Shown piece after piece: positions 2,555-28,134 of a stretch of DNA of 40,799 nt. The notes below the pieces were generated by a model. That model was given only the letters and a program-made list of their open reading frames with translations. It was not told the DNA's origin and did not search any database. Location: IMG/VR virus record IMGVR_UViG_2698536687_000008, positions 1-40,799 of that record. The stretch is one strand, 5' to 3'. How positions within the stretch are numbered: position 1 is the stretch's first letter; the number at the start of each line of letters is the position of its first letter. A program made the translations under genes and the position numbers. This stretch comes from a virus (taxonomy: Duplodnaviria > Heunggongvirae > Uroviricota > Caudoviricetes).

Positions 2555-2917
2555 ATGTTAAAGCTATTTGCAAAGTACACCTCGATTGGTGTGCTGAACA
2601 CACTTATACACTGGGTGGTTTTTGGTGTATGTATCTATGCCGCGCATACCAATCAGGCTCTGGCAAACTTCGCAGGTTTCGTTGTGGCTGTGAGTTTTAG
2701 CTTCTTCGCGAATGCAAGATTCACATTCAAAGCATCGACTACAACGATGCGCTACATGTTATATGTCGGGTTCATGGGAACACTGAGTGCTACTGTTGGA
2801 TGGGCTGCTGATAGATGTTCACTTCCTCCAATTGTCACTCTTGTCACCTTCTCCGCCATCAGCCTGGTGTGCGGTTTCGTCTATTCAAAGTTCATTGTCT
2901 TTAGGGATGCGAAATGA
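2555..2917 (+). CDS. gtrA: Bactoprenol-linked glucose translocase (flippase) GtrA
   Basis: 120-aa four-TM protein of the GtrA family; first gene of a gtrABS operon. Confidence 0.88.
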
Positions 2918-3840
2918 AGATATCTCTTGTAGTTCCTGTCTTCAATGAAGAAGAAGCGATACCAATTTTTTATAAAACGGTACGAGAGTTCGAAGAGTTG
3001 AAGCCATATGAAGTGGAAATTGTTTTCATAAATGACGGAAGCAAAGACTCTACGGAGTCAATTATTAATGCTCTGGCTGTTTCAGATCCCCTAGTTGTTC
3101 CGCTGTCATTTACGCGCAACTTTGGTAAAGAACCAGCATTGTTTGCAGGATTAGACCATGCAACTGGGGATGCTATAATCCCAATTGATGTTGACCTGCA
3201 AGACCCGATTGAGGTTATTCCTCATCTTATTGAAAAGTGGCAGGCAGGTGCTGATATGGTGCTTGCTAAACGATCTGACCGCTCAACGGATGGTAGACTG
3301 AAGAGGAAAACCGCCGAGTGGTTCTATAAGCTGCATAACAAAATCAGCAACCCGCAGATCGAGGAAAATGTTGGAGATTTCAGGCTAATGTCTCGCGAGG
3401 TGGTAGAAAACATTAAGCTCATGCCTGAGCGCAACCTTTTCATGAAGGGTGTTTTGAGTTGGGTTGGTGGTCGCACTGATATCGTTGATTATGCCCGCGC
3501 AGAACGTGTTGCTGGCAGTACCAAGTTCAACGGATGGAAGTTGTGGAATCTTGCTCTTGAGGGAATTACGAGCTTCTCGACTTTTCCGCTACGTATGTGG
3601 ACTTACATCGGCCTTCTCGTCGCTGGCTTAGCATTTACATATGGCGCATGGATGATTCTGGACACTCTGGCGTTTGGAAACCCGGTTAGAGGTTATCCAT
3701 CCCTGCTGGTATCGATACTTTTCTTGGGCGGGATTCAGTTGATCGGTATAGGGGTACTTGGTGAATACATCGGAAGGATTTATATCGAGGTTAAACAGCG
3801 TCCAAGATATATTTTAAAGGGTAAGAATAAAAATGATTAA
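2914..3840 (+). CDS. gtrB: Bactoprenol glucosyltransferase GtrB (GT2 family)
   Basis: 308 aa with N-terminal GT2 domain (VVPVFNEEE...DGSKD...DVDLQDP) and C-terminal TM helices; start overlaps gtrA stop. Confidence 0.9.
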
Positions 3841-5287
3841 CAACTCAAAACGTTACTCGTATGTTATTTTTATATTTATATTGCCAATTATCCTAGCAAA
3901 TCAATTTTATGTTGATGATATTGGGCGAACGACTGTTGGTTATACTAAATGGGGTGTGGACGGGAGGCCTGTAGCTGATATAGTAATGTCAGTTCTCAAT
4001 CTTAGCTCCAGAATCGTCGATCTTGCACCTCTACCAATCATTCTTGCTTCTGTGCTGCTTGCAATATCTTTTGCATGTTACAGAAAGAGGTTTCTTGATG
4101 GGGGAAAATGGAGCTTTATTATACCTCTGGCATTCATGGCGAATCCAGCTATTATATCAATGTTCTCTTATCGGTTTGATGTTTTAACTTTCAGTTTCTC
4201 CATTGCATCTGCATTTGCTCTCTTTGCAATTAAGTGCAAAAGACTGGCTCATGAATTAATAATAGGCACCGCATTTGTAGTGATAGTGCTTGGCACTTAT
4301 CAGGCAGTCATTAATGTCGTTGCGATTTTATTAATATGTGAAGTAATAGTTAACATGGCCAGATTTACTGACCCGCAGTTAATACTTAAAAGGGTTGCAT
4401 TACGTATAATGCAGGTTTTAGTAGGTGGTGTGATATACGTGAAATTCATATTACCCATAACTTTTAGCGGGCATTATTCATCTAATCACCCAAGAATATC
4501 AAATGATATATTTGGTGCACTAAAGAATAACAGCTTAAAGTATTACGATTTTGCTTCTACAAATTTTTACAGGGTTATCGGTGGTGAATTATTACTCCTG
4601 TCAGCTTTAGCTTGCATTATTATGACGGCGTTTCTGAGTTACAAATACGTTAAATGTAAAGGCCTAAACTGGAAAGTATTTAACGTTATAACTGGAGCGA
4701 TACTCGCAACAGCAATCGCTATGCCAATGACTATGGGGGCATTGCTGGTTCTCGCCAACCCATTGGGAGGAGTTCACTTATACATGTCGGTTGGAGTTTT
4801 TTATGTCCTCATGAGTACATTGCTATATTATTGCTTTAAAGAACATAGATACGTAACATCAATTACATTAATACCCGTATTGTATTCTATGATTTTAATG
4901 TATGCATACGGAAATGCTTTGAAGGCTCAGGAAAGGATAAATAAAGTAGTTCTTTCTGAAATTATGCAATCCATTCGCGACGCTGGTAGTGATAATGTTA
5001 GCATTGTGTTTACCGGCACAGCACCAAGATCCGAAGCTGTAAAAAATGCAGCATTAAACTTTCCTTTGATAAACTATTCAGTCACAGATTACTTCTGGAA
5101 CTGGTATTGGGGAAGTGCGTACATGTCATTTAATGGGATAAAGAATACATACATGCCAGCAAACAAGGCTAAAAATTACATTTCTCATAAATGTGAAGGT
5201 AACCTATCCTTTCAGGGGCAATGGCTAAATTCCTATATCAAGGATAGCGTTTTGATTGTTGATTTTGATAAAAAATCCTGCCAATAA
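3833..5287 (+). CDS. Serotype-specific O-antigen glucosyltransferase (GtrS/GtrC-type polytopic membrane protein)
   Basis: 484-aa multi-TM protein directly after gtrB; strongly AT-rich coding sequence typical of horizontally acquired gtr type-specific genes. Confidence 0.75.
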
Positions 5288-5322: not shown

Positions 5323-7482
5323 TCAATAGGTATAAATAGGTTGATCTTCTACAGGCACGCACTTCATTCTGAAGAATGAATAATAACCTGAATTACCTGT
5401 GAAAGTAAGAGTTAATGTGCTACCAGTGAATGTTGCTGTGGGTGCTGGTATTAATGTGGTCCCAGCCTTCGAGCGTCCCTGGTAGCCAGTAACAGTTGTT
5501 GTTGTTCCTACCAACACTGTAAATCTTAAATCCTGCTGTACAGTGGATGCGGTGTTTCTCATCAAAAGCCTAACGCTATACTCACCTCCATCTGCAATAT
5601 TTCCAATCTGGATACTAAAGCTCACTGTACCATTTGCAGTTACAGTAGGAGTTCGCATTGTATACTGGTCTAGCAATCCAACAAATTGAACTGTAAAAAG
5701 CCTCTGCGCTGAAAGTGTAGTCGATAAGCTATCTGTGATAGGGTGTTGGTTTTTTATGACAATATTGTAGGAGCCATATCCTAAATCTTTAGTAAGATTC
5801 TGGAATTTTGTTACCACTCTTGGATTTTCAATTATCACTCGTGATCTTTCAGATGGGAGGTATTCTCCTGAAGTAGTGTCAAAAACATTCCCTGACTGCA
5901 CCGCCAGATCTTTAATGTCGTGATTAAAGTATGTCCCTGTTGAATAAAACTCTGAGGCAACACCATGCACAAAAACACGATGCCCTGTCTCGCTTGCAGG
6001 TACTCCAATCCATTCTGTATACCCACCAAACATATTAACATTGCCGCAATAAAAAAGAGCAAACTCTCTGTTGTACCCTTCTATTGTTACGCCATACAGG
6101 TCTATATCGAAGCTATTGTAAGCATACATAAATGTAGTTACATATGCGATATTCGGTCTATTAGAATCACTTATGCTTCGATGGAACCATTGCTGAGTAC
6201 CATCAGCAAAAAGGAAAGAAGTGTTACCTGTAAAATAACCAGCATCTATGCGTATAGCGGTGCATTGATACACAAGAAATGTTGCGTATTTAGCACCAAA
6301 AGCAAAGCAATCGCGGATAGAGATATCCCATGAACCATTCAACCAGTACCCAACCTTGCAATTATACACCGCGACTTTATTAAGTCTGGAGGCTGGCACG
6401 CGCCAAATTCGAACACCGCATTGTGTATCTGCAAGACCGATAAATACTATGTTTTCCAGGGTAGCCCCGTAATACCCATCACTTTCAGTACGACCGTATA
6501 ACATTTCGTCTGTTGTCGTATACCGCTTAGAGTTATCCTTTAGCCATGGAGCTGTGTCAAACATTATCTTTGAGGTTTCCATAGTTGGCATAGCCACAAT
6601 GCAGGCGCATCCAGCCCGGGAAAAACGAAATCCTGGACTGCCGCCGGTTCCCAAAATTCGCACATTAGGTGCACCATAGATGGTGTCATTGATGTAGAGT
6701 AGCCCCGCTGGAATTACCACATCACCCCCCTGATGGCTATCCATATCCTTATCTAAGTATGGGTTTAAGTAGGATATCGCGGCGTTAAGCATAGGTGCGC
6801 TATCAAAAGTGTTGTCGTTAATTTTAGCACCAAACTCCAGAGGGGATACTGTGCGATTAAGATACGCGGCTACAAACTCTCTCTTCCAGCGTCCGGTTCC
6901 GACATTGCCTGTTGGGTTAATGGTATAGCCTCCGTCATCAGTATCAGTGCTGGTTGAATTCCAGCGGAAATATCCTCCGCCATAACCAGCTCCAAGGTGA
7001 TAAGAATCAACATAGACTCTTCCATTTTCCTTAACTGATGAGTATGCAGTAAATGCTCGTAGATCTGCTATTGATGAGAATGTACCAAATAATGCATAAG
7101 AATCAGGCGCAGACATCTTGGCAAGCCATTCTGCAGAAAACTGATCCGGGTCATACTTCAGCACATTAGGAAAATAGAACTGCTGCACACCGTATGCATC
7201 ATAAACAGCCATCGAATGGCCTTGCACAGTTACGAACTTGGCAATCTGTCCGTTATATACCGGGTAACCAGCCGCATTAATGATGATTGGTTGCGAAACA
7301 GGAACGTGAGAACCGTCTTCGTTCTCCACATAAACCTGAATCTGGTTTTCAGGATTTACCGGGTCAGTGTCAATTTTACCGATATAAATTTTGCCATTGG
7401 CTACGGCTTTAAAAGAATGAGCCATGGTGAAGAGTTGCGAAGGCATGCTGACCACAACATTGGCATTTATTGAATCTGTCAT
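5323..7482 (-). CDS. Tailspike protein (P22 gp9-like head-binding domain plus divergent beta-helix receptor-binding/O-antigen-cleaving domain)
   Basis: Start ATG at 7482 gives [18 protein letters not shown]...; first ~110 aa match the P22/Sf6/HK620 tailspike N-terminus from memory; rest is divergent. Confidence 0.9.
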
Positions 7483-7569
7483 TTTAATTTCTCTATATGT
7501 TAAGCAAGCAATATTCATTGCTAGCATGTTTTTTGTATAATGAGTGCACTTTATTTAAAGGTGGTTAAC

Positions 7570-8078
7570 ATGAACTGGAACGAAGTATTCGTATTAAAAG
7601 ACGATGGACTCCTGTACTGGAGTGACCAATATCTTTCAAGACCCAAAATGTTCAATATCTCTAAAGAAAAGCCTGCAGGACATATATTCAAGGACAAGAA
7701 CAGGAAAACCTCTTATATAATTATTAGGTATCAAGATAAAATATACGCCGCCCATAGGATAATATGGGAAATGTTTTATGGTGAAATCCCTTCCGGAATG
7801 CAAATTGACCATAAAGATGGTAACGGGTTAAATAATTCAATAGACAACCTGCGTCTAGTTAGTCTCGGTGAAAACCTAAAAACAAATCTAAATACACAAA
7901 CAATACATCTGGGTGTGCTGGGGTTTCATGGCATAAGACCCATAAAAAGTGGGTGGCATATATTAGCGACGCAGGGAAGCGCATTAATCTCGGATACTTT
8001 AAGAGTCTCGATGATGCAATTGCTGTAAGGCGTGAGGCTGAAAAGACCTATGGTTATCATGAGAATCATGGTAGGTGA
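7570..8078 (+). pseudogene. HNH-AP2 homing endonuclease, reading frame broken in an A-rich tract
   Basis: Frame A (7570-~7880) carries the HNH motif IDHKDGNGLNNSIDNLRLV; the AP2 domain GVSWHKTHKKWVAYISDAGKRINLGYFKSLDDAIAVRREAEKTYGYHENHGR continues in the -1 frame to a stop at 8076-8078. Confidence 0.6.
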
Positions 8079-8209
8079 TATCTGACATTTCATTGCTCCA
8101 GACGAATGATATGATGCAACCATGATGTGATTGCATACCGAAATGGTACTATTGAGTATTTATCCAGTAGGTTACGATGCCATTCCACCCAACTGGTGAG
8201 GCATCAAGG

Positions 8210-8470
8210 ATGTACAGCAAATACGACGAGGCGAAGTTTCACTTGAGACTTCCGCATGAACTCCACGCGAAAATTAAGCAGCGTGCGAAGATGAATAACA
8301 GGTCGCTGAACTCAGAGATAATTGCAGCGATTGAAGAATCATTGGCTAAACAAAGCTCTGCACCAGTTTACATTGACGATGCAGAGCGTATGGCAGAACA
8401 ACAATCTGATATGGTTAAGAAAATTGTCTTTGATACGCTCAAAGAGATATATAAAAAAGACAGCAGTTAA
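8210..8470 (+). CDS. Mnt-like ribbon-helix-helix repressor (Arc/MetJ superfamily)
   Basis: 86 aa from ATG 8210; KFHLRLPHELHAKIKQRAKMNNRSLNSEII RHH motif and C-terminal DAERMAEQQSDMVKKIVFDTLKEIYKK resembling P22 Mnt. Confidence 0.75.
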   Translation: MYSKYDEAKFHLRLPHELHAKIKQRAKMNNRSLNSEIIAAIEESLAKQSSAPVYIDDAERMAEQQSDMVKKIVFDTLKEIYKKDSS

Positions 8471-8490
8471 CCATCAGTTACGGAGGATTT

Positions 8491-8568
8491 ATGCAAAGAG
8501 ATATGCTGAATATTGCGTTCTACATATTTGGTTTTTGCACGTTCCTGGTGTTTGCGAAGCTATTCTGA
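8491..8568 (+). CDS. Hypothetical 25-aa hydrophobic peptide
   Basis: ATG preceded by RBS ACGGAGG; encodes MQRDMLNIAFYIFGFCTFLVFAKLF; very short, unverified. Confidence 0.25.
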   Translation: MQRDMLNIAFYIFGFCTFLVFAKLF

Positions 8569-10557
8569 CAACGCATCAGACTTGGCACCCTGAGTAATGG
8601 CGTTAATGGCCTTTTGCGCCTGCTGCATGGCTTTCTCAAACGCTGTTGATCCGCGTGGGGTATTTGCCATTCGGAGCATTGCATTTCTGAATGGCTCGCT
8701 CTCATAGGCGCGAGTAAGAAGTCCGTAGCTTACCGCTGCGCCAGTTGTCGCCGGGTTCATTGCCGTCCCATACCCAATAATGAACGGGATGGTTTGCTGC
8801 CCTGTTGGTGTTGTTACTGCTGCTTTTGCAGCCTGTTGCGTGGATTGCAGGTAGTTTTTCAATCCTTTCAGATAAGCAGCATCCTGACCTTTAAATGTGA
8901 TGCCAGTCTGGTTTTGCAGGATGTTAAGCTGTCGAAGGAACTGGTCAGGGGAACCACCTGATTTCTCCATCGCCTTTCCAATGATGCCATTGCGCATTTG
9001 CGCCCTGCCAACACGACCAACTGAGTTATACAGTGTCTTAATTTCAGATTTGTTCTTGCTGAATAGCATGTTATTGACAACTTCCGGCGTCAGATCGCCT
9101 TTCATGAGAACATTCTTCAGCCTGGTATTCTTGAGTTTCGCCGCTTCGTCAGCGTAGACGGCATTGGCCTGCTGATATTTACGGAGAGTATCGTTGCCAA
9201 GATTCTGACCAATGGCACCATTGATATCGTCGGTCATCGCCTTGTAAACGCGCTGAATGGCGGCATCGGAACGGTTTGGTAACACTGGTCGCTCACCCTT
9301 CACGTCCATTCTGAACTGGCTGCGCAGATCGCTTAATTGCTTCAAGTCCAGATTTACCGGACCATCAGGGCCAGCATTGCGAACAAGCTCATCACGATAT
9401 GACTGAAGTTTTGAAATAGTCTCGTTATCAGCGACCTTACCAAGCTTCTGCAGATTAGATATCTCGGTATCAATCTGCTGAATTGCTCGCGCAGGCAGGA
9501 TATTGACTCCCGCCATTGCATTCTGAACCTGCTCAAGACGGTTCCCTGCAGCGCGACGAATTCCTGATGTTTTCGCTTTAAGGCTGTCAATAATAACCGC
9601 TGGATCATACTCACCGAATTTATCAGCAAATCTCTGCACCAACTGGCTTCTCGCTTCCTGTTGCGTTGCTCTCATTCCGCTTGTGCCAGCCAGAGGGATA
9701 TTTTCTGCTGTAGTCTGCGCCATTTTTCCGACGCGGGAAGTGGGTTGTAACAGGTCTGTGGTGTGCAGAGGAACTCCTTCACGCTCTGCAAATCTGATAG
9801 CCTGCTGCGCTTCTGGCGCGATAGCACCACGAACGCCACGATAAGCAGCACCTAATCCACGTCCAGCGGCGTTAATAGCACCGCCAGCAAGTACACCAAC
9901 GCCTAAATCGGTGGCGAGTGCTTCCGCATCATCTTTCGCACTATTTGCAGCAAGTGATCCAACTGCGTTTTCTGCTAGAAGGCGAGTTGCCCCCTGAGCA
10001 ATTCGACCAGCAAGTGTTGGTGCCTGCGCTGCCGCTCTCTCAACGCCAGCAGGAGTGAGGTAAGGCAATGCTTCAGCAAATACCCTTCCCTCTGTCGTTT
10101 GTGGAGTCAGCGCGCCTTGCTGAAGGCCAAAGTCCTGCTCTAATCCCTGCGTTGTTACTCGTGGCGCTGGTTGATATGTACCATCGCCAATGCCGAGTTT
10201 ACCGCCAGCCCAAGCCGCCGCGCTTGTTACAGCATCGGCAACTGATGCAGGTATGTTTGCCACGTTCACGCCAGCCTGCACCAGTCCGCGACCAGTCTCT
10301 TTTACTGCTTCGCCAAGATCAGACATAAATCCACTTTGCTGTGGTTGTTGCTGTGCAACTGGTTGCTGTGTCTCCACTTTCTGCACAGATGGCAATGGAT
10401 AGGCAGCATAGAAAGCTTGCTTAGCCTGCTCTGCATTTTCTCCGGCTTGCGGGGCCACGACTTCATTGAAGTATTGCTCCTGAGCCTGCGCTTTTTGTTC
10501 TGGTGCTAACGCCTGATACTGTGGAGAGGCGATAACATCTTTCCATGCTTTAGCCAT
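8560..10557 (-). CDS. Ejection (injection) protein, P22 gp16-like
   Basis: 665-aa Ala/Gln-rich protein in the gp16 position of P22 gene order (last of the 7-20-16 ejection set). Confidence 0.8.
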   Translation of the reverse strand: MAKAWKDVIASPQYQALAPEQKAQAQEQYFNEVVAPQAGENAEQAKQAFYAAYPLPSVQKVETQQPVAQQQPQQSGFMSDLGEAVKETGRGLVQAGVNVANIPASVADAVTSAAAWAGGKLGIGDGTYQPAPRVTTQGLEQDFGLQQGALTPQTTEGRVFAEALPYLTPAGVERAAAQAPTLAGRIAQGATRLLAENAVGSLAANSAKDDAEALATDLGVGVLAGGAINAAGRGLGAAYRGVRGAIAPEAQQAIRFAEREGVPLHTTDLLQPTSRVGKMAQTTAENIPLAGTSGMRATQQEARSQLVQRFADKFGEYDPAVIIDSLKAKTSGIRRAAGNRLEQVQNAMAGVNILPARAIQQIDTEISNLQKLGKVADNETISKLQSYRDELVRNAGPDGPVNLDLKQLSDLRSQFRMDVKGERPVLPNRSDAAIQRVYKAMTDDINGAIGQNLGNDTLRKYQQANAVYADEAAKLKNTRLKNVLMKGDLTPEVVNNMLFSKNKSEIKTLYNSVGRVGRAQMRNGIIGKAMEKSGGSPDQFLRQLNILQNQTGITFKGQDAAYLKGLKNYLQSTQQAAKAAVTTPTGQQTIPFIIGYGTAMNPATTGAAVSYGLLTRAYESEPFRNAMLRMANTPRGSTAFEKAMQQAQKAINAITQGAKSDALSE

Positions 10558-23182: not shown

Positions 23183-23725
23183 TTAATTAGTGAGTCCGGG
23201 GATTACGGTTTGCCCGTGCTGTTCAAGGCGTTCAATTCTCGCCATTAGCTGAGGCTTCTTAATTTTTCCCCAGCGATTAAGCAGGCGACCTGACATGCTG
23301 GCAACATCCTTCTCTTTCATGTACTCCAGCATTACGGCATTTCTCTCTTCTTCAAATTGACGATGACCAACCTGAAGCATGGCGTACATCCAGTTGAATG
23401 CGTTGATGTAAGCAATTTTGATACGCATTGCTTCTTTTTTGGTGTAGGACATAACCAAAAGCATCAACCCATCCTTGCGGAGACGGTAGAATTTTTGCGG
23501 CTTACCATTCTGTAACTCATTGTTTTTATAGCAAAGCTCAAAGTTGAGCTTTGCATCAAACTCAGGAGGGCAAGCTTCTATGGTTCGCTCAATGTCACGG
23601 ACTACGTTCTTCGGCAGCTTTCCAAATGCTTTTGCCACCATAAAAGAATCTGTAACCGGATCGTTGTTTGCTACAAAAATTAGGTCTCTGAAATCTATAT
23701 CGTTAACAACGGTTGGGTAGTTCAT
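23183..23725 (-). CDS. Rha-family phage regulatory protein
   Basis: 180 aa; N-terminal LIFVANNDPVTDSFMVAKAFGK pattern typical of the Rha domain; P22 has rha in this position. Confidence 0.65.
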   Translation of the reverse strand: MNYPTVVNDIDFRDLIFVANNDPVTDSFMVAKAFGKLPKNVVRDIERTIEACPPEFDAKLNFELCYKNNELQNGKPQKFYRLRKDGLMLLVMSYTKKEAMRIKIAYINAFNWMYAMLQVGHRQFEEERNAVMLEYMKEKDVASMSGRLLNRWGKIKKPQLMARIERLEQHGQTVIPGLTN

Positions 23726-27125: not shown

Positions 27126-27412
27126 GGCTTAATCTTCCCCTCCTTCAGTAGTATCGCCTGCGTCCTGATCACGCCTTCGAGGTGGTAAAGTCTGGCGTCT
27201 TTGTTGTCGAGATTATGGGTGCGTCGGTCGATTTCATCGTGACACGCGCTACAAGCCCATGCGCCGATCAGGTCGTCAGGCTTCATTCCCGTTCCGCAAA
27301 TTCCAGCCATCCGGTAATGTGCCAGAACTGTAGTTTCAGGATTACCATTGCATACGCCGTAAATACGTACCTGGCATTCTCTGCCGCGTGCTTCTTTGCG
27401 TAGATTAGCCAT
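27122..27412 (-). CDS. YbcO-like DUF1364 protein (putative metal-binding nuclease)
   Basis: 96 aa with Cys/His ligand pattern (CQVR...CNGNPE...CSACHDEIDRRTH) resembling DLP12 YbcO. Confidence 0.7.
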   Translation of the reverse strand: MANLRKEARGRECQVRIYGVCNGNPETTVLAHYRMAGICGTGMKPDDLIGAWACSACHDEIDRRTHNLDNKDARLYHLEGVIRTQAILLKEGKIKP

Positions 27413-28134
27413 TAAGCAGCCTCCCCTGTTACTTTCAGCATTCCGTTATCGAGCAGCTTTCTGGTCAGCCACTGTTGACCACGCCCGGTGATTTTTGTGG
27501 TGAACGATATCTGTATTCCGTGATTTGTGTTGACCGCTGTTTCTTTCACTGTGAAATAGCCGCGATCCATATATTCCTGCATTGGCACATTGCGCCGGGA
27601 ACCTGAAGCAATAAGGATTTTGTGATCGCGCATCCACGCAAACAGTTTGTTTGGACCAATACCGACAACCTTTGCAAAGTTTCCAATCAAAATTCCGCTG
27701 GCCTCGCCAACGCGATCGGCAAACTCAACTTTAGGTGCGGCAATTGCAAGCTGGTTTTCCAGTTGCATTTTCTGCTCAGCAAGATCAGCAGCAAGGCGCA
27801 ACGCTTCCGGTAGCGTTTTGGGGATATTAACCGCAGCTTCTTCAAGATCTCGCCAGCGGTCAACAAGGCGAGCGGTGAACTCTGGCGACAACTGGGCAAC
27901 AACAACAATACTATCTCGCTTACCTTGTTCGCCTTCGAAGACGTAATGCTCGTACTGAACATTGAACCCTAAGTTATTGATTCTTTCGGAAACCTCAATT
28001 TGAGGAAGCCGGATAACACCATTTTTAGCCAGCGTTTCGATGGTACGTTTCACATTGTCATGACGCTTACCCACCAACTCAGCGATTTCAATGCTTGTCA
28101 TTTTGATGGCATTGCCATTTATTAACTCATTCAT
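27412..28134 (-). CDS. Antirepressor-like protein (Rha/Bro-type N-terminal domain plus KilAC-type C-terminal domain)
   Basis: 240 aa; domain pattern inferred from sequence, not searched. Confidence 0.65.
   Translation of the reverse strand: MNELINGNAIKMTSIEIAELVGKRHDNVKRTIETLAKNGVIRLPQIEVSERINNLGFNVQYEHYVFEGEQGKRDSIVVVAQLSPEFTARLVDRWRDLEEAAVNIPKTLPEALRLAADLAEQKMQLENQLAIAAPKVEFADRVGEASGILIGNFAKVVGIGPNKLFAWMRDHKILIASGSRRNVPMQEYMDRGYFTVKETAVNTNHGIQISFTTKITGRGQQWLTRKLLDNGMLKVTGEAA

Follow-up and report, generated by a model that had tools for sequence, protein, structure and literature searches.

A putative self-contained mnt cassette and an adjoining candidate micro-protein gene between gene 16 and the tailspike gene of an Escherichia coli P22-like phage

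In this work, we present an analysis of the region between the gene 16 homologue and the tailspike gene in the circularly permuted genome of an Escherichia coli (E. coli) P22-like phage (Lederbergvirus), deposited as IMG/VR record IMGVR_UViG_2698536687_000008 (positions 1 to 40,799; this whole stretch of 40,799 nucleotides is referred to below as the window). In P22 this place is occupied by the immI region with its repressor gene mnt; in the window mnt stands alone and is followed directly by a 25-codon hydrophobic open reading frame (ORF). We favour reading the region as a reduced 'ant moron', that is, a self-contained mnt cassette composed of operator, promoter and repressor gene, and the evidence for it comes from the protein, from the conservation of its predicted operator and from the selection acting on orphan mnt genes.

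Results

Mnt protein, its predicted operator and promoter

The three components of the cassette are as follows:
8134-8150, no strand: predicted operator of Mnt, CATACCGAAATGGTACT; half-sites TACC and GGTA(C)
8152-8178, + strand: homologue of the promoter P_mnt, with -35 TTGAGT at 8152-8157, -10 TACGAT at 8173-8178 and a 15-bp spacer
8210-8470, + strand: mnt, whose 86-aa product is a ribbon-helix-helix repressor with a C-terminal tetramerisation coil of the P22 type, assigned by profiles and PDB matches

The gene at 8210-8470 encodes a genuine Mnt-family repressor, as the initial annotation of this DNA had proposed in calling it a Mnt-like ribbon-helix-helix protein. Residues 7-49 match Pfam Arc (PF03869, E 8e-15), which is the N-terminal ribbon-helix-helix domain, and residues 57-82 match Pfam Repressor_Mnt (PF11423, E 2e-13), the C-terminal tetramerisation coiled coil; in the PDB the product matches 1MNT (Mnt N-domain, E 9e-19) and 1QEY (tetramerisation domain, E 3e-8). 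Its identity to P22 Mnt is 47.5%. The protein is a mosaic, with an N-terminal DNA-binding half of the JEP4/VSe13 type and a C-terminal tetramerisation half of the P22 type, the C-termini of the JEP4 and VSe13 proteins being unrelated to the latter.

When the sequences between the tailspike gene and mnt from eleven phages and prophages were aligned (alignment A2), CATACCGAAATGGTACT came to lie column for column opposite the annotated P22 O_mnt AGGTCCACCGTGGACCT and the corresponding SE1 site AAGACCACGGTGGTCTT. Downstream of the operator the aligned sequences share TATTGAG, the -35 of P_mnt, followed by TACGAT opposite the P22 -10 TATCAT (P22 P_mnt is annotated as TTGAGA-17-TATCAT). The site is two-fold symmetric, lies upstream of mnt and adjoins the -35 element; its arms are 4-5 bp long and its symmetry is weaker than that of the P22 operator. 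The TACC-N5-GGTAC core is kept in all of the approximately 144 relatives with an AQFHLRL recognition strand among the matches listed, and the central bases alone vary; these relatives include prophages of Buttiauxella, Serratia and Citrobacter as well as phages JEP4 and VSe13. Recognition strand and operator half-site co-vary, forming three classes:
PHFNFRM, half-site GGTCCAC: P22 and epsilon34
PQFNLRL, half-site AGACCAC: SE1 and Gally
AQFHLRL, half-site TACC: the class of the window

We predict from these alignments that the Mnt operator is CATACCGAAATGGTACT. The ratio of nonsynonymous to synonymous substitution rates (dN/dS) of orphan mnt genes was 0.24 for the window against L120 (a prophage of Escherichia sp.), 0.03 for JEP4 against VSe13 and 0.11 for SE1 against Gally, with synonymous sites saturated or nearly so in these pairs; values of 0.03-0.24 indicate that orphan mnt genes are under purifying selection. 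This selection, together with recognition residues co-varying with the operator, therefore argues for a working autoregulated cassette and not for debris. The P_ant hexamers of P22 are degenerate in the window (the -10 has become TAAATA in A2).

An inverted repeat GATGCC...GGCATC with inner CACC/GGTG extends over 8176-8205 (+), covering the P_mnt -10, the leader and the Shine-Dalgarno sequence (SD) of mnt. SE1 and Gally have the same outer arms with an inner stem CACTT/AAGTG. The repeat could form a structure in the leader or serve as a second site for protein binding.

The neighbouring palindrome belongs to the tailspike leader

A more conspicuous symmetric element overlaps the left end of the predicted operator:
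8114-8136, - strand: imperfect 23-bp palindrome ATGCAACCATGATGTGATTGCAT, read here as an RNA hairpin of the late-operon tailspike leader

This palindrome, unique in the window, was considered as the Mnt operator and rejected. It does not align with P22 O_mnt, JEP4, VSe13 and further relatives that share the recognition strand lack it, unrelated hairpins replace it at the same place (in P22 before gene 9), and its variants keep pairing only as - strand RNA by means of G.U pairs. The late operon of the window is on the - strand, and as - strand RNA, i.e. in late mRNA, the element pairs perfectly over a 9-bp stem, one of the pairs being G.U, at which the + strand has a C.A mismatch. Variants at this pair are U.G, U-A (IME10) and C-G (L160), further U.G pairs occur elsewhere in the stem, and L120 carries compensatory ATTCAAT/ATTGAAT arms. 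The hairpins found at this place in other lineages are GC-rich, unrelated in sequence and perfect solely as - strand RNA; that of P22, ACCGTAGCCATGCTGCGG, stands approximately 30 nt before the start of gene 9 (P22 locus L007, about 1585-1605). Since the variants pair as - strand RNA and other hairpins replace the palindrome in place, it belongs to the tailspike leader and not to Mnt, and by these comparisons 8114-8136 is an RNA hairpin of the tailspike leader in late mRNA.

A hairpin located approximately 25-30 nt upstream of the tailspike ribosome-binding site (RBS) is a common trait of P22-like late mRNA, conserved in structure and variable in sequence; both AU-rich and GC-rich forms exist, along with G.U intermediates and compensatory changes. 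It may serve as a terminator, a stabiliser or a processing element for tailspike expression. Berget et al. in 1983 reportedly found P22 tail-protein expression to be controlled by termination, and the leader hairpin may be related to this control.

Loss of arc, ant and sar, and occurrence of lone mnt genes

That mnt has no arc or ant neighbours was noted at the outset and holds under direct search. Queries with P22 Arc and Ant gave no match near mnt, Arc matching only the mnt N-domain, and the - strand between mnt and the tailspike gene has no Arc-like ORF. With respect to sar, Rfam gave no match in 7400-8700 at E<=1 except a chance miRNA match, and no 5' end of ant is present with which sar could pair. 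Of the two explanations offered initially, the one by which immI has been rearranged is correct: the interval from gene 16 to the tailspike gene carries a reduced form of the 'ant moron'. This term denotes a variable, independently expressed and hypervariable set of genes between the gene 16 and tailspike homologues (Villafane et al. 2008; PMC2629481), and in the window mnt, the small ORF and an HNH gene indeed lie between these two genes on the opposite strand. Ant morons with mnt only have already been described in ST64T, ST104, Para1 and L, with their function left open (PMC2629481, PMC8022706).

The lone-mnt layout is a known and common variant of the ant moron, not an unusual one. The order tailspike gene (-), mnt (+), gene 16 (-) also occurs in Sf101 and IME10 with the same mnt allele (94-95% protein identity), IME10 being the closest published relative of the window (80% of a 24-kb query covered, 96% identity). 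JEP4, Gally, VSe13 and SE1 likewise have mnt and the tailspike gene in divergent orientation, arc and ant being absent from the interval. The mnt allele of the window was found in 277 of 5,426 complete E. coli genomes (about 5%), where PGAP labels it 'Arc family DNA-binding protein', and the whole 541-bp block in 141 of them. E. coli W and strain Z1323HEC0300 are examples of carriers of the block.

Related IMG/VR loci were collected through the hairpin palindrome (at least 113) and through the operator (about 50 more at least). Those listed are all tailspike-proximal, except nine probable chance matches with no recognisable gene, and among them no intact arc-ant pair lies between a TACC-class mnt and the tailspike gene; a complete immI, with arc-ant beside a TACC-class mnt, was found neither among the matches listed in IMG/VR nor in GTDB genomes. 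Locus L169 (400-860) has the C-terminal third of ant together with its terminator between the tailspike gene and a TACC-class mnt, which points to an origin of lone mnt by deletion. Locus L135 (7300-10420) carries a complete, separate mnt-arc-ant set and in addition a tailspike-proximal mnt of the TACC-operator class. The two loci seem to show the ant moron at different moments of gain and loss.

The 25-codon ORF downstream of mnt

The elements downstream of mnt are the following:
8482-8486, + strand: Shine-Dalgarno sequence GGAGG of the 25-codon ORF, read from the sequence
8491-8568, + strand: 25-codon hydrophobic ORF MQRDMLNIAFYIFGFCTFLVFAKLF, intact in relatives and with codon-type conservation
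8560-10557, - strand: gene 16 homologue (Sf6-type DNA-ejection protein); the homology block common with Sf6 extends from 8491 into gene 16

An RBS-preceded hydrophobic ORF of 25 aa directly after mnt, as described initially, is indeed present: GGAGG stands 4 nt before the ATG, and the last 9 nt of the ORF overlap the gene 16 stop. The peptide begins with the polar MQRD and continues with approximately 18 hydrophobic residues in a single segment. The accompanying remark that it may be non-coding has to be turned round in part, as the ORF is probably coding, judging by intact frames, a low ratio of nonsynonymous to synonymous polymorphism (pN/pS) and three-periodic diversity, but caveats stand, among them the count of substitution events discussed below. 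We consider it rather likely that the ORF is a real, unannotated gene for a single-pass membrane micro-protein, probably co-transcribed with mnt.

The other view is that the ORF is untranslated, and that the conservation of 8491-8559 reflects only its position 3' of gene 16 in late mRNA, or else recent common descent; we hold this to be the less probable of the two, yet a serious possibility. The frame is intact, with ATG and always 25 codons, in 38 of 38 haplotypes from 92 loci, but this is weak evidence, given that a stop would arise from only 2.8% of single substitutions. At codon positions 1/2/3 the diversity amounts to 0.079/0.078/0.193 (permutation p=0.005), with the other phases negative, so the three-periodicity falls in exactly this frame; substitution events counted by codon position, on the other hand, do not differ significantly (chi-square p=0.10), and the central 30 nt are highly conserved even at third positions (nucleotide diversity 0.03). 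Third-position diversity over the ORF (0.16) can be taken as equal to that of gene 16 (0.14), which speaks against an untranslated flank, as do the pN/pS of 0.33 in frame and the replacements, which are conservative and for the most part exchange L, I, M, V and T for one another. Of the five other frames, four have a pN/pS of 0.7-1.8, and the remaining one (0.39), on the antisense strand, is interrupted by a stop.

Context speaks in the same sense. Three unrelated upstream contexts diverge up to the ATG of the ORF, so that the homology boundary coincides with the start codon three times independently. Sf6 has no mnt and keeps the ORF, its homology with the window starting at the ATG; in Gally and VSe13 the ORF follows a different + strand gene of the PHROG 6067 family (with a weak, insignificant N-terminal resemblance to Cor/Rz-type proteins); Sf101 has mnt, another gene 16 allele and no small ORF. 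What the ORF accompanies is therefore the Sf6-type 3' end of gene 16, not mnt. The SD is GGAGG in at least 64 loci of mnt-proximal context and weaker in the Sf6 and Gally contexts, the latter fitting an untranslated sequence better. No small hydrophobic ORF was seen beside the gene 16 alleles of P22, SE1, Sf101 and Buttiauxella, with a filter that also missed the known Gally and VSe13 copies, so that this negative carries little weight.

A function of the region as a terminator or structured RNA was considered and rejected: fold z-scores are -0.3 and -0.8 on the two strands, no terminator was called, and conservation as RNA loses ground accordingly. The ORF occurs in 269 of 5,426 complete E. 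coli genomes (about 5%) and is annotated in 0 of the 269. In favour of an untranslated sequence, the peptide is found in no protein database or profile library: it had no match in Pfam, PHROGs or NCBIfam at E<=1, curated small-toxin families included, a collection of 15 billion proteins does not include the exact peptide, and a search for its string in the literature was empty.

Antirepressor-like genes elsewhere in the window

The initial annotation had named the gene at 27412-28134 in the nin region as the only antirepressor-like gene and suggested that Mnt may control such a distant target. Our analysis found two genes of this kind, both on the - strand: 27415-28134, a 240-aa gene with pRha and ANT/KilAC domains (ANT E 8e-33), and 23186-23725, a second Rha-family gene (pRha+ORF11CD3). 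The former is translationally coupled to the nin gene before it, its ATG overlapping that gene's stop (ATGA) inside the nin operon, and so it has no promoter region of its own and no room for an operator. The pattern RTACC-N5-GGTAY has one perfect copy in the window, the site of mnt itself (8135-8149), and four matches with one mismatch (4871, 16192, 16614 and 30426), all far from both antirepressor-like genes. Operators of the P22 and SE1 types do not occur in the window, and neither operator-like palindromes nor one resembling 8114-8136 were found near either gene; the proposed palindrome search upstream of the nin-region gene, in particular, gave no Mnt operator-like site.

HNH insertion and more distant neighbours

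On the tailspike side the cassette is bordered by the following elements:
5323-7482, - strand: tailspike gene, with ATG at 7482 and a protein beginning MTDSIN
7570-8078, + strand: HNH_3 homing-endonuclease gene (Pfam HNH_3, E 1e-20), inserted outside the cassette with the tailspike gene on one side and the mnt control region on the other
8074-8088, - strand: relic, the first five codons of another tailspike allele, ATGTCAGATATCACC (MSDIT), recognised by alignment with HNH-free relatives

The HNH gene reported beside mnt is there, but 1 nt is missing from an A-run at about 7877 and its reading frame is shifted, for which a homopolymer sequencing error is a possible cause. Intact 179-aa copies are present in loci L121, L089, L091, L055, L040 and L028. 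An HNH gene occupies the mnt-tailspike slot in approximately 13 of the 113 related loci among the matches listed, and in other loci HNH genes of 35-42% identity are seen in the same slot, which means that several different homing endonucleases have invaded the same tailspike-proximal site. In HNH-free relatives the tailspike coding sequence starts at the position of the relic. The relic, which stands beside the HNH insertion and includes the SD of the other tailspike allele, looks like co-conversion of flanking sequence during homing.

Farther away, the interval from a 397-aa ORF (1209-2402) to the tailspike gene contains three successive + strand ORFs (2555-2917, 2914-3840 and 3833-5287). In order and size they are similar to the gtrABC O-antigen-modification genes next to an integrase gene, and at the place of the third (3833-5287) a glucosyltransferase-domain gene is annotated in the relative Z1323HEC0300.

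Discussion

Why a lone mnt may be kept

The reading that we favour can be described as follows. The lineage has lost arc, ant, sar and a usable P_ant, leaving the mnt cassette. In a lysogen a + strand transcript would start near 8185; no terminator was predicted between mnt and the small ORF, so this transcript would carry both. The Mnt tetramer would bind one site in the genome, at 8134-8150, centred approximately 43 bp upstream of the start, and would thereby autoregulate the mnt-small-ORF transcript and not the ANT gene of the nin region. P22 Mnt represses the P_ant of incoming relatives in a P22 lysogen. We infer a similar reason for retention here, just as we infer the binding and the joint transcript: the lone Mnt may act as a guard in trans, silencing the P_ant of superinfecting relatives that have the cognate operator. 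In the lineage of the window the cassette may also serve as a promoter cassette for the small membrane peptide.

Several points weigh against this picture. A guard would be left with no present-day target, since no complete immI with a TACC-type operator was found among the matches listed; known full immI regions have the P22-type operator, and L169 offers only a C-terminal fragment of ant. A purely trans role needs no conserved cis operator, yet the operator is conserved. Sf101, JEP4, VSe13 and Gally keep mnt with no small ORF directly downstream, so that providing a promoter for the ORF cannot be the general reason. Truncated or pseudo mnt genes occur in 6 of approximately 150 relatives among the matches listed. 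Lys9 of the window protein (AAG, 8234-8236) is private, 143 of 144 relatives among the matches listed having Gln (CAG); residue 9 aligns with His6 of P22 Mnt on the DNA-contacting beta-strand, and the change Gln9Lys at a key contact position could weaken binding to the unchanged operator. Finally, a consensus promoter scan did not call P_mnt, whose spacer is 15 bp in the window lineage and 17 bp in JEP4 and VSe13, and the strength of P_mnt in the window is uncertain.

The main alternative is that Mnt acts in cis, the repressor on its operator being a roadblock or insulator that sets tailspike levels by limiting non-antiterminated (prophage-state or moron-derived) leftward transcription or by tuning late read-through. 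Both forms of this idea we consider unlikely, although much can be said for them. The operator-mnt unit adjoins the tailspike leader wherever a neighbour is identifiable among the loci listed, L135 included, the operator adjoins the leader hairpin in all lineages compared, and the preservation of a cis operator is what such a role asks for. The ant moron influences tailspike synthesis (PMC2629481), and deletion of immI-sieA leads to robust tailspike synthesis after induction (PMC10883804, PMC8402733). The same adjacency, however, is equally expected from a simple deletion of arc-ant in a P22-like ancestor. The promoter scan called no - strand promoter in the tailspike-mnt region, and neither by the scan nor by manual comparison with P_ant does a leftward promoter overlap the operator. 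In the window the HNH gene and the relic start codon put approximately 650 bp between the operator and the real tailspike gene, and P22 Mnt is not known to block Q-antiterminated late transcription.

It is improbable that mnt is just an inert remnant of a decaying immI. This possibility was raised by the authors of the phage L genome (PMC8022706); it agrees with the loss of the classical target P_ant-arc-ant, with the pseudo and truncated copies mentioned above and with the private substitution at a DNA-contact residue. It is opposed by the strong purifying selection among orphan lineages, by the conservation of operator core and promoter across genera, by the co-variation of protein and operator and by the presence of the allele in about 5% of complete E. 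coli genomes. The mnt pseudogene of Citrobacter locus L124 (about 4001) has a stop after codon 4 with a recognisable promoter and an operator-like site, one arm of which is changed. As for control of the ANT/KilAC gene at 27415-28134 or of the Rha gene at 23186-23725, their antirepressor-type domains would make them apt targets, but with no TACC-N5-GGTAC, P22-type or SE1-type operator and no palindrome near either, and with no space for a promoter or operator before the ANT gene, this explanation is very improbable.

What the small peptide might do

A role of the small peptide in exclusion or DNA entry is only a lead. Its starting point is SieA, a protein of the inner membrane which acts on gp16 and gp20 and has the motif FxRYPxEAxxFNK (PMC10883804). 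By analogy, the peptide would form a minimal SieA-like inner-membrane system acting on DNA entry: inherited as a unit with the C-terminus of an Sf6-type gp16, it would exclude superinfecting P22-like phages or modulate the phage's own ejection-protein channel, and in parallel the lone Mnt would be a stand-alone 'anti-antirepressor guard', keeping the Ant of incoming relatives from inducing the prophage. We regard this combined picture as doubtful. That the ORF is a remnant of SieA itself was rejected, as a P22 SieA query gave no match there. Constitutive expression together with a repressor gene, if it takes place, argues against strong toxicity of the peptide.

What is added to the known picture

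As far as Mnt is concerned, our results mostly confirm what is known, namely that the immI/'ant moron' slot is a recombination hotspot of P22-like phages and that Mnt-only versions are common, and the new content is modest overall. It consists of a predicted operator for the E. coli class of orphan Mnt proteins, of evidence that the orphans are maintained by selection and that protein and operator co-evolve in three specificity classes, and of a warning that the conspicuous palindrome is to be taken as a tailspike-leader RNA element and not as the operator. To this is added a candidate gene for a conserved micro-protein, which occurs in Sf6 and approximately 5% of complete E. coli genomes and is called by no annotation pipeline. 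If translated, it would offer a tractable new prophage membrane factor located beside DNA-ejection genes, in much-studied phages like Sf6 and in strains like E. coli W.

Comparison with known systems

Type I toxins (Ibs, ShoB, Ldr) and regulatory micro-proteins such as AcrZ and MgtS are similar in size to the small peptide (19-35 aa) and consist, like it, of a single hydrophobic helix. As in type I toxin systems, a transcript antisense to the ORF exists, the late operon running opposite; unlike them, the peptide matches no toxin profile and no dedicated antisense small RNA locus is evident, the late-operon transcript alone being antisense.

With P22 SieA the small ORF shares slot and orientation (prophage strand, adjoining the gene 16 stop) and a predicted membrane-embedded product. 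SieA acts on gp16 and gp20, and the ORF is genetically linked to one gp16 allele. The two differ in that P22 SieA has approximately 162 aa and three predicted transmembrane (TM) helices, whereas the peptide has 25 aa and one hydrophobic segment; there is no sequence similarity, and the FxRYPxEAxxFNK motif of SieA types A-C (3-4 TM helices) is not in the peptide.

P22 immI and the window have in common the two-domain Mnt, the slot between gene 16 and the tailspike gene, and the homologous placement of operator and P_mnt. Unlike P22, the window lacks arc, ant and sar, and its P_ant hexamers have degenerated. The recognition strand is PHFNFRM in P22 and A(K/Q)FHLRL in the class of the window, and the operator GGTCCAC-C-GTGGACC corresponds to TACC-N5-GGTAC. 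Downstream of mnt P22 carries orf59a, and also sieA; the window carries the 25-codon hydrophobic ORF and no sieA.

The closest parallels are the Mnt-only phages L, ST64T, ST104, SE1, Sf101 and IME10, in which a lone mnt diverges from the tailspike gene and an O_mnt-like palindrome is kept (PMC2629481, PMC8022706). The L/SE1 type belongs to another specificity class (PQFNLRL with AGACCAC) and has cargo of the orf59a or orf62 type. Compared with its Mnt-only relatives, of which Sf101 has no small ORF, the window is distinguished by the addition of both the HNH insertion and the small ORF.

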